Assembly (NCBI GenBank): GCA_964461985.1
Contig: CAYWWG010000002.1
Location: forward strand, 1-41,297
Length of the DNA: 41,297 bases
DNA from: an uncultured Candidatus Saccharibacteria bacterium
GTDB lineage: Bacteria > Patescibacteriota > Minisyncoccia > Phycocordibacterales > UBA9973
Reading direction: 5' to 3'
Shown here: piece after piece, positions 16,101 through 16,870 of the stretch
How the letters are laid out: each line of letters begins with the position of its first letter
Numbering within the stretch: position 1 is the first letter of the stretch
Position numbers and translations under genes: made by a program
Notes under the pieces: generated by a model
What the model saw: the letters and a program-made list of their open reading frames with translations, nothing else
Databases searched by the model: none
What the model was told of the DNA's origin: nothing

Positions 16101-16114
16101 TAATGCAGTATCCA

Positions 16115-16139
16115 CAGATAGTGCTTCAGGCACTATCTG
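16115..16139. repeat. REP-like hairpin 1 (CAGATAGTGC-TTCAG-GCACTATCTG)
   Basis: Perfect 10-bp stem. The 3' arm overlaps the expected -35 position of the RAYT promoter. Confidence 0.75.
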
Positions 16140-16168
16140 GTGTTTCTATGAATTGATATAATTAAAAT

Positions 16169-16840
16169 ATGCGTAAAGAACCTTTAGTGACAGGTGAATA
16201 TTATCATATATATAATCGTGGTGTAGATAAGCGTGATATTTTTATGTGCAAAGAAGACCTAGAACGTTTTATTGAAAGTATTTTAGAGTTTAATAATGTC
16301 GAGGTTATTACCAGTATATCAAATGTAAGAAAAACAAAGAACCAGATAGTGCCTGAAGCACTATCTGGTAAACCGCTAATCTCTGTTATTGGTTGTTGCT
16401 TGAATCCAAATCATTTTCATTTTATTTTGAAACAATTAGAAGATGGGGGTATATCTAAATTCATGCAAAAACTACAAGCAGGATATACATATTATTTAAA
16501 TGTTAAAAATTCTCGCACAGGTGCATTGTTGCAAGGTGCTTTTAAATCGCATCATATCTATGATGATAATTATTTTAAAAAACTGATTGGTTATGTAAAT
16601 TTTAATAACGAAGTACATGATATACCTTTAGAAAAATCACACCTAGTTTTCTCTGGTAGTTCAGAATATAAAAATAATAATTTCAATGTTATTTCAAAAA
16701 TAGAAGGTGAAAATATTTTAAAAATGTTTGGTGGTGTAAAGGGATTTGAAAAATATTGTAAAGAAATAATTTCTGTAATCAGAAAAGAAAGAGGTAAAAT
16801 GTCATTGTTAGAAGAAGATAATTTACCAGATAGGACCTAA
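16169..16840 (+). CDS. REP-associated tyrosine transposase (RAYT; IS200/IS605-like Y1 HUH family)
   Basis: The GEYYHIYNRGVDKRDIF N-terminus, the HUH motif in NPNHFHFILKQ, and the Tyr-containing helix QAGYTYYLN...RTGALLQGAFKSHHI are typical of PF01797-type RAYTs. TATAAT at 16157-16162 lies 6 nt before the ATG. Confidence 0.8.
   Translation: MRKEPLVTGEYYHIYNRGVDKRDIFMCKEDLERFIESILEFNNVEVITSISNVRKTKNQIVPEALSGKPLISVIGCCLNPNHFHFILKQLEDGGISKFMQKLQAGYTYYLNVKNSRTGALLQGAFKSHHIYDDNYFKKLIGYVNFNNEVHDIPLEKSHLVFSGSSEYKNNNFNVISKIEGENILKMFGGVKGFEKYCKEIISVIRKERGKMSLLEEDNLPDRT
16341..16369. repeat. REP-like hairpin 2, in frame inside the RAYT coding sequence
   Basis: ACCAGATAGTGC-CTGAA-GCACTATCTGGT, a perfect 12-bp stem. 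Its 25-nt core is the exact reverse complement of hairpin 1. It encodes residues N58-G67 (NQIVPEALSG). Confidence 0.8.
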
Positions 16841-16851
16841 AGTCCTATCTG
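16827..16851. repeat. REP-like hairpin 3, spanning the RAYT stop codon
   Basis: CAGATAGGAC-CTAAA-GTCCTATCTG. It has the same CAGATAG base with a variant upper stem. The TAA stop (16838-16840) sits in the loop. Confidence 0.75.
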
Positions 16852-16870
16852 AGTGTGGTATTATGTAAAT

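Follow-up and report, generated by a model that had tools for sequence, protein, structure and literature searches.

The DNA analysed here, referred to below as the window, is a 41,297-nt (41-kb) stretch of contig CAYWWG010000002.1 from an uncultured bacterium of the Patescibacteria. It contains one copy of a gene resembling those of the REP-associated tyrosine transposases (RAYTs), accompanied by three short palindromes that resemble repetitive extragenic palindromes (REPs). All three are perfect, with stems of 10-12 bp, and have the stem base CAGATAG/CTATCTG in common. The upstream palindrome, H1 (16115..16139, strand not assigned, as an inverted repeat to 16141), has a 10-bp stem and the loop TTCAG (CAGATAGTGC-ttcag-GCACTATCTG). 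H2 lies in frame within the coding sequence on the + strand. Its core (16343-16367) starts at codon 59, its 12-bp stem occupies 16341..16369 with the loop CTGAA (CAGATAGTGC-ctgaa-GCACTATCTG), and codons 58-67 read NQIVPEALSG. H3 (16827..16851, + strand) extends over the end of the open reading frame (ORF); it has the upper stem GAC/GTC (CAGATAGGAC-ctaaa-GTCCTATCTG), codes for P220-D-R-T223 and holds the TAA stop codon (16838-16840) in its loop. A first-pass annotation, made from the sequence without database searches, had described the three hairpins with their common base, the variant upper stem of H3 with the stop in its loop, and an H2 core that is the exact reverse complement of H1. Each of these descriptions was borne out, and the inverted repeat extends to 27 nt at 100% identity (H1 16115-16141, H2 16341-16367).

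The pattern CAGATAG-N11-CTATCTG occurs at three sites in the window against 0.06 expected and no shuffle gave three; a tolerance of three mismatches added one more site in the window, at chance level. For the hairpins folded as single-stranded DNA (ssDNA), energies lie between -9.5 and -13.1 kcal/mol and z-scores between -4.9 and -9.3. The patch of hairpins and gene is AT-rich, as had been noticed at the outset, with a GC content of 28.8% versus 36.7% for the window; out of 406 windows of its length (740 nt) it ranks in the bottom 13. The remaining hairpins with long perfect stems in the window have A/T flanks, resemble terminators and are of another kind. A terminator-like pattern of hairpin and T-rich tail is satisfied by H1 on the + strand and by H2 on the - strand, and a Rfam scan of 15700-17300 returned sub-threshold chance matches only and no family.

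The gene (16169..16840, + strand) is intact and encodes a HUH/Y1 protein of 223 amino acids, recognised from Pfam, an alignment of homologues, and an AlphaFold2 (AF2) model compared by Foldseek. The protein matches the Pfam family Y1_Tnp at 27 bits (cut-off 23). Its HUH motif is H82-F83-H84 (16412-16420) and its catalytic tyrosine is Y142 (16592-16594); H82, H84 and Y142 are invariant in 30 aligned homologues, and both the HUH and Tyr motifs are retained in 72 of 73 distinct homologues. The top Foldseek match of the AF2 model (pLDDT 75, pTM 0.74) is 4er8_A, the Escherichia coli RAYT bound to REP (E 1.8e-4, probability 1.00), followed by 2a6m (IS608) and the ISDra2 TnpA entries 2xm3/2xo6. Profile and single-sequence searches of the PDB gave no RAYT or IS200 match, and the fold comparison alone succeeded. 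The domain match, the invariant HUH/Tyr residues and the 4er8_A fold support the original identification of the ORF as RAYT-type, and they partly support a role for the protein as a RAYT-type HUH/Tyr single-strand DNA nuclease-ligase.

In the AF2 model the H2 peptide, N58-G67, is located in the loop joining helix 1 to the HUH strand. The pLDDT falls below 50 at residues 49-54, 57-64 (most of the H2 peptide) and 209-223 (the H3-encoded tail), and the segments encoded by H2 and H3 are predicted to fall in disordered parts of the protein. An earlier suggestion that the in-frame copy is tolerated in a surface loop agrees with this prediction, and H2 may well be tolerated because the loop that it encodes is disordered. 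Judged by the coordinates of the Pfam and NCBIfam matches, the protein appears to have ~24 residues more than canonical Y1 proteins, and distant family members have still longer inserts at the same loop.

An extended -10 element, TGATATAAT (16154..16162, + strand), ends 6 nt before the ATG and no Shine-Dalgarno sequence is present, so the RAYT mRNA is probably leaderless. The 3' end of H1 lies 14 nt upstream of the TGn and 17 nt upstream of the TATAAT hexamer, which is the -35/spacer position. A scan with a two-hexamer consensus called no promoter before the RAYT gene, and there is no recognisable -35 hexamer. The overlap of H1 with the -35 region, claimed in the first-pass annotation, is thus correct as to position, but the promoter is of the extended -10 type. 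The same arrangement is common in the family. In 36 of 62 distinct homologous loci, exactly 6 nt separate the end of a TATAAT-like hexamer from the ATG, 35 of 46 have the extended TGn, an SD-like (Shine-Dalgarno) 4-mer is found in none of 85, and H1 ends 1-22 nt upstream of the -10 element in most loci. Within the ORF, the conserved YHIYNRG codons give rise to an 11/12 sigma-70 match (16187-16216, + strand, GTGACA-18-TATAAT), which is probably incidental.

Conservation of the three-site layout

The homologues form more than 2,000 clusters at 90% identity, and those named by source are all Nomurabacteria, Paceibacteria or Patescibacteria. A library at 50% identity held 104 representatives at E<=1e-30 and 8,152 at E<=1e-3. 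Paralogues within a genome are only ~65% identical to the query protein and have different hairpins; P0038 and P0057, from one genome according to their NCBI names, have CAGATAGCGC-type and AACAGCGCC-type hairpins, respectively.

To locate the hairpins relative to the gene, 80 homologous loci from metagenomes were scanned for perfect hairpins. Among 79 genes, those with a stem of at least 8 bp numbered 52 at -60..-1 relative to the ATG, 44 at +180..+209, 11 at +450..+479 and 64 at +630..+719, over a background of ~1 per 30-nt bin (0.5 per kb). Pair-type counts made on hairpins chosen for perfect stems are circular at positions 1-8, and a test on unselected windows was preferred, in which perfect stems of at least 8 bp were counted in 67 non-identical complete genes of 39-96% identity. 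Such stems were present upstream (-100..-5, H1) in 72% of the genes, at +150..+225 (H2, codons ~57-66) in 60%, at +425..+500 (a second internal site) in 15% and at -45..+50 of the ORF end (H3) in 82%, compared with 0-3% in four control stretches of the ORF. The second internal site is used in distant clades and lies after the catalytic tyrosine, at about codon 150.

The homologues are of equal length, with no gap at the H2 site, where residues 59-66 are conserved as QIxPKALS, and their C-terminus is conserved as LPD(S/R)x*. Both peptides are translations of CAGATAG...CTATCTG, each in its own frame. The reading frame of the hairpin differs by clade and the resulting peptides are unrelated (QIxPKALS, SSGVQHPT, HSDVGRPK, SLGHPMSKS, RFGGKASKT), which argues that the palindrome at the site is conserved and not the peptide. 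Accordingly, homologues with QIxPKALS carry the palindrome, elsewhere the peptide changes with the hairpin, and conservation of the peptide without the palindrome, a possibility raised in the first-pass annotation, was not seen. Because the same layout recurs across the gene family, the three-hairpin design is, on the evidence of these alignments, old and actively maintained and not a recent accident.

The relative orientation of the hairpins varies between loci. For H1 and H2, 28 loci have an inverted and 13 a direct arrangement; for H2 and H3, 27 are direct and 11 inverted, and for H1 and H3, 21 are inverted and 17 direct. In the window the loops of H1 and H3 are opposite. In the CAGATAG clade the orientation of the H2 loop appears to be fixed by coding, since a flipped loop gives an in-frame TAG, and the TAA is provided by the H3 loop.

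Two disrupted members of the family were encountered. In L060 (1500-2260) H1, the promoter and H3 are kept, and in place of the first ~70 RAYT codons stands the 5' portion of an unrelated gene, nearly equal in length and with a weak Exo_endo_phos match (E 0.006), so that H2 is lost and the RAYT gene is disrupted; on the right, the breakpoint is situated ~20 nt beyond the H2 site. P0151 (115 aa), a P0057-like RAYT, has residues ~70-176 deleted, which is the entire HUH-to-Tyr core. The deletion begins right after the H2 peptide and has 'ISK' microhomology at both ends.

Concerted change and dispersal of the hairpins

The consensus of 160 hairpin instances is C-CAGATAG...CTATCTG-G, in which ATAG is inside the stem and there is no unpaired GTAG foot; the 25-nt palindrome follows the formula C-CAGATAG-nnn-yTNAr-nnn-CTATCTG-G. 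Different clades have different hairpins (CAGATAGnnn, AGACAGCGC, AGAAAGGGCC, AGTGAGAGC, GTCGGGTGT, TTCGGACGT, TGTAGACGT, ACTTGGAGGC and others), while the sequence is equal at all sites within one locus. The 8-nt inner arm of H2 was found again in the H1 or H3 stretch of its own locus in 38 of 40 loci, compared with 4.8% of comparisons with the H1/H3 stretches of another locus. Within the CAGATAG clade the three upper stem pairs co-vary (CGC, AGG, GGG, AGC, TGC, CGG), and these variants agree with the protein tree only in part, the variant being shared by 13 of 27 nearest neighbours. Imperfect stems contain G-T mismatches 11 times versus 9 for A-C, which is uninformative on RNA- versus DNA-level selection.

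Six close relatives, the window among them, display all four combinations of H2 and H3 upper-stem variants. The window has TGC at H2 and GAC at H3, L166 has TGC at both, L123, L206 and L207 have GAC at H2 and TGC at H3, and L205 has GAC at both. L205 and L206 differ by 5.7% overall, and their H3 hairpins differ at 5 of 11 variable positions (binomial P=2e-4), whereas the 26 nt preceding and the 40 nt following the hairpin are identical. The replaced H3 sequence is exactly the H2 of the same locus. This pair shows, as read from the aligned sequences, at least one hairpin-limited replacement of H3 by H2 sequence between close relatives. In addition, H2 of L028 is chimeric, with an H1-type left arm and an H3-type right arm. 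Taken together, the comparisons support copying between REP copies.

The trio of the window, L166 and L123 was set aside as evidence for hairpin swaps. Over 150 nt across H3 (alignment columns 776-925, about 16750-16900 of the window), L123 (83% amino acid identity to the window) does not differ at all from L166 (96%), although elsewhere L166 is far closer to the window, and this identity was ascribed to ordinary homologous recombination; the L205/L206 pair was used instead. Mosaic homologous recombination is, by the pattern of these loci, frequent in the population. L205 is itself a mosaic, P0002-like upstream and L166-like downstream.

To find copies away from the gene, one genome per species was scanned with the pattern CAGATAG-N4-TNA-N4-CTATCTG, and at least 120 sequence blocks matched, 71 of them from Patescibacteria. 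Among the matches listed, these 71 blocks from the Candidate Phyla Radiation (CPR) contain 82 hairpins, 22 at RAYT genes and 60 solo; of the solo hairpins, 28 lie up to 60 nt downstream of an ORF, nine over a stop codon, six inside ORFs and 17 are otherwise intergenic. The upper-stem variant of the solo copies matches that of the RAYT locus in the same genome (L115/L140/L169, L141/L100, L132/L180). Because solo copies exist in related genomes, where most of them closely follow a gene, the hairpin appears to be a true REP, and the earlier description of it as the REP-like repeat of this RAYT gains support from the shared genome-specific variant.

Some solo copies contribute to proteins. They supply the last three to four codons and the TAA of rpsE, dapF, adk, maf and other genes (L142, L146, L150, L163, L169, L177), and the ORF ends so formed in rpsE and other genes of the relatives read '...DSA*' or '...DRA*'. 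Elsewhere they are translated in frame as QIxxKxLS, in purL, holB and other genes (L171, L104, L165, L188). GC-rich palindromes of the form CCCCTCTCCTT...AAGGAGAGGGG, present in contigs of the Nomurabacteria that carry P0038 (L201 14073-14099; L202 1280-1304 and 1591-1613), may represent another, second repeat family.

Interpretation and comparison with known systems

RAYT genes flanked by their own REPs, known as REPtrons, are well described (PMC6006769, PMC3337134). We think it probable that the locus is a REPtron of a large RAYT lineage, so far confined to Patescibacteria (Nomurabacteria/Paceibacteria), and that its cis REPs are kept alike by copying. It is part of this explanation that the 25-nt palindrome would be the cognate REP of the 223-aa protein. 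The enzyme would bind the folded palindrome on single-stranded DNA, and the gene-proximal hairpins would be its nearest substrates. Short-patch copying from REP to REP, through cleavage and strand transfer by the enzyme or through template switching at the hairpin, would repeatedly overwrite the cis copies and so keep a perfect palindrome alive within a coding sequence. Negative autoregulation is proposed from the location of H1 at the -35/spacer position, since a protein sitting there, next to an extended -10 promoter with a leaderless transcript, would be likely to obstruct RNA polymerase and so hold down expression of the enzyme gene. H3, from which the final codons and the stop derive, may damp termination or determine where the mRNA has its 3' end, and H2 would be a common but dispensable copy.

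The nearest well-studied counterpart is the E. coli REP/BIME system (bacterial interspersed mosaic elements) with TnpA_REP (4ER8; PMC3479197, PMC6006769), an enzyme that cleaves and transfers strands (PMC3479197). Both have an HUH/Tyr Y1 fold, 4ER8 being the best structural match, a low-copy gene with its own palindromic repeat on both flanks, dispersal mostly downstream of genes (here in the relatives) and a genome-specific variant paired with the gene. The present system differs in its repeat, which is a fully symmetric perfect palindrome with few dispersed copies in relatives, and of which one copy is translated at a fixed site. In its protein the stretch from helix 1 to the HUH strand is longer by ~24 residues, and there is a ~75-aa C-terminal domain.

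The first-pass annotation had called an in-frame REP inside the enzyme's own ORF unusual. This was overstated, because in-frame REPs between HuH and Y inside tnpA_REP genes were published as 'remarkable and unique' to subclass 2.4 (Quentin et al. 2018, PMC6006769), and REPs within genes or providing a stop codon are also on record (Di Nocera et al. 2013, PMC3733652). Subclass 2.4, from Cyanobacteria and Bacteroidetes, has symmetric 'double-foot' REPs (PMC6006769), and resembles the present family in these symmetric palindromes and in REPs that keep the frame in a peripheral region of the protein, a comparison made by features and not by protein kinship. Here, unlike there, the site lies before HuH (codons ~57-66), with a second site after Y in distant clades; the site is fixed family-wide, the in-frame copy changes in concert with the flanking copies, and the host phylum is another. 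Like intragenic and stop-supplying REPs and the Rickettsia palindromic elements, the hairpins are translated in frame in reduced genomes and supply stop codons at ORF ends (PMC3733652), but those elements are scattered in host genes whereas here the copy is fixed in the gene of the presumed mobilising enzyme. We found no literature linking REP/RAYT systems with the CPR. What appears to be new, going by the loci compared, is the fixed pre-HuH site, the second post-Y site and their conservation across a very large CPR family, and likewise the concerted change of the cis copies and the constant placement of H1 relative to a leaderless promoter and of H3 relative to the stop.

Several observations weigh against reading the locus as a REPtron in this sense. 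The 5' GT[AG]G guide tetranucleotide of canonical REPs is absent. The protein scores 27.6 bits against a cut-off of 80 with the NCBIfam equivalog REP_Tyr_transpos (NF047646), far under the cut-off, and its Y motif is Y142-V-N-F-N146-N147 where the canonical motif, and RAYT criterion, is Y-x3-NP (PMC6006769); in homologues (YVNKNY, YTNKN and similar) Y-x3-N is retained and the P replaced, giving Y-x3-N-[NY], although YIHLNP is found in P0252, a distant family member. The flanks of RAYT genes contain few additional copies (13 in 307 kb). For this organism, neither the window nor the four metagenome assemblies containing it yielded another copy of either hairpin variant; the assemblies were searched with 50-nt H1/H3 probes that did detect H2 on the same contig, and the REP may be present at the gene only. 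The inverted arrangement of H1 and H2 is a preference only. H2 is absent from L062 and L078, which keep H1 and H3, and eight genes with intact motifs have no perfect hairpin at all, so no single hairpin copy appears to be essential. Some of the variant swaps stem from ordinary recombination, given the 150-nt identity of L166 and L123, and the agent of copying could be either the enzyme or template switching at a hairpin. Binding, cleavage and autoregulation by the RAYT are all deduced from sequence, and no RNA-seq runs containing the locus are listed.

Some of these observations suit a purely selfish persistence, in which overwriting between REPs maintains hairpins that are of no use to gene or host and H2 and H3 are merely tolerated. 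The losses of H2, to which decayed remnants in L164 and L132 can be added, and the intact genes devoid of perfect hairpins agree with it, as do the hairpin-limited replacement and the occurrence of the same REP in frame in the unrelated purL and holB and at the stops of rpsE, dapF and adk. The relations of H1 to the leaderless promoter and of H3 to the stop are nevertheless fixed down to ~39% identity, which is otherwise hard to explain and makes a selective value likely. Purely selfish maintenance is therefore possible but, in our estimation, doubtful; it has the copying step in common with the REPtron explanation and differs from it on function only. Elements acting at the RNA level, as terminators, 3'-end stabilisers or translation attenuators independent of the enzyme, would fit the presence of H2 and H3 within the mRNA, the terminator-like patterns at H1 and H2, and the preponderance in relatives of solo copies up to 60 nt downstream of ORFs or over stops, as in known REPs (PMC3733652). 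They would not explain why H1 lies upstream of the presumed transcription start and is usually opposite in orientation to H2, or why 38 of 40 loci have one sequence in common when folding requires none. G-T is not favoured over A-C in imperfect stems, no Rfam family matches, and the real terminators of the window are the different, A/T-flanked hairpins; an RNA-level explanation is accordingly quite unlikely. Least credible is a recent insertion of a REP into the ORF, one of the options offered in the first-pass annotation, which could draw on the 100% identity of H2 to the reverse complement of H1 and on its disordered loop. It was rejected, and we consider it refuted, as the same codon position is filled in 60% of the 67 homologues, down to ~39% identity and in clades with unrelated hairpins, and the homologues are of equal length and align without a gap at the site.

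The remaining alternatives concern movement of DNA at the hairpins. A programmed switch, in which H1 x H2 recombination inverts the promoter and first 58 codons and H2 x H3 recombination excises the 484-bp catalytic core to turn the gene off and on, is suggested by the perfect 27-nt inverted repeat around the promoter and N-terminus, the excess of inverted H1/H2 pairs (28 to 13), the foreign DNA of L060 between H1 and about H2, the loss of the core from just after the H2 peptide in P0151, and strand transfer by E. coli TnpA_REP (PMC3479197). Inverted or deleted forms, which the first-pass annotation had proposed looking for, were not found over 15600-17300 in four assemblies, all of them collinear, and none of 96 homologous loci gave split or opposite-strand matches; these are assembler contigs, in which rare variants would be missed. 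The 13 loci with direct H1/H2 pairs, the microhomology at both ends of the P0151 deletion and the L060 breakpoint ~20 nt past the H2 site also speak against a switch, which we regard as very unlikely. Self-editing of the gene by its enzyme, in which the cis REPs are working recombination sites whose ssDNA is cleaved and rejoined, forming a self-limiting on/off circuit in the coding sequence, has a small chance of being correct. If true, it would explain hairpin-limited rewriting and predict low-frequency H1-H2 inversion or H2-H3 excision of the catalytic core, and it would give a first natural in vivo read-out of strand transfer by a RAYT.

The hairpins of IS200/IS605 elements are recognised on single-stranded DNA and lie upstream of and inside the transcript of a gene that is expressed at a low level. 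An autonomous insertion sequence of this type, with H1 and H3 as its left- and right-end hairpins, could account for the Y1 HUH fold, which is that of the IS608 and ISDra2 TnpA proteins, for hairpins flanking the gene and for a patch more AT-rich than its surroundings. Such elements are multi-copy and have two different imperfect hairpins on one strand, whereas the flanking hairpins here are perfect, alike and mostly inverted. The window has a single copy, near-identical copies at different sites are lacking, the ~65% identical paralogues of a genome have different hairpins, synteny among close relatives is stable, with common downstream neighbours, there is no tnpB, and solo hairpins are dispersed without the gene. 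We therefore give an insertion sequence very little credence.

To our knowledge, the role of RAYTs and the mode of REP copying have had no answer after decades of work. The REPtron explanation would offer a compact test case, a 223-aa enzyme with three perfect copies of its presumed substrate in 740 bp, at the promoter, a coding loop and the stop, and with thousands of natural variants in which the copies change together. It would also provide a case in which DNA structure dictates protein sequence, 8-10 residues following the palindrome over long evolutionary times, and would extend REP/RAYT biology to Patescibacteria, whose small genomes are otherwise repeat-poor.

Neighbourhood of the gene

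Immediately downstream, 16871-17020 (+ strand) encodes a 49-aa ORF that bears the DEVGRG motif, corresponds to the N-terminus of RNase HII only (Pfam, 36 bits) and is followed by a terminator hairpin at 17019-17047. The C-terminal part of RNase HII was not found elsewhere in the window. The first-pass annotation had placed a truncated gene next to the RAYT gene, and this is right in so far as a fragment is concerned. A fresh truncation is unlikely, however, because L166, L123, L205 and L206 conserve the fragment with differences mostly at third positions, as read from the alignment, and it has the look of a mini-ORF that is being maintained.

Downstream of the RAYT gene, close relatives have the same neighbours. 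Upstream, synteny with L166 and L123 breaks right upstream of a conserved terminator (16067-16101). An 80-aa Cys-rich ORF at 15822-16064 is absent from both, and L206 has an 80-aa ORF at the same position. Elsewhere in the window, a perfect 10-bp palindrome at 31644-31667 (GACCAGAAGC-tgtt-GCTTCTGGTC), within the ORF 30689-32089, is not A/T-flanked and is unrelated to the REP. Beyond the RNase HII fragment lies a split transketolase (17033-21048, + strand), with its N-terminal half at 17033-17986 and its pyrimidine-binding/C-terminal half at 20062-21048; between the halves is a 548-aa ORF (17990-19636) that has a HESGH motif and no Pfam match.

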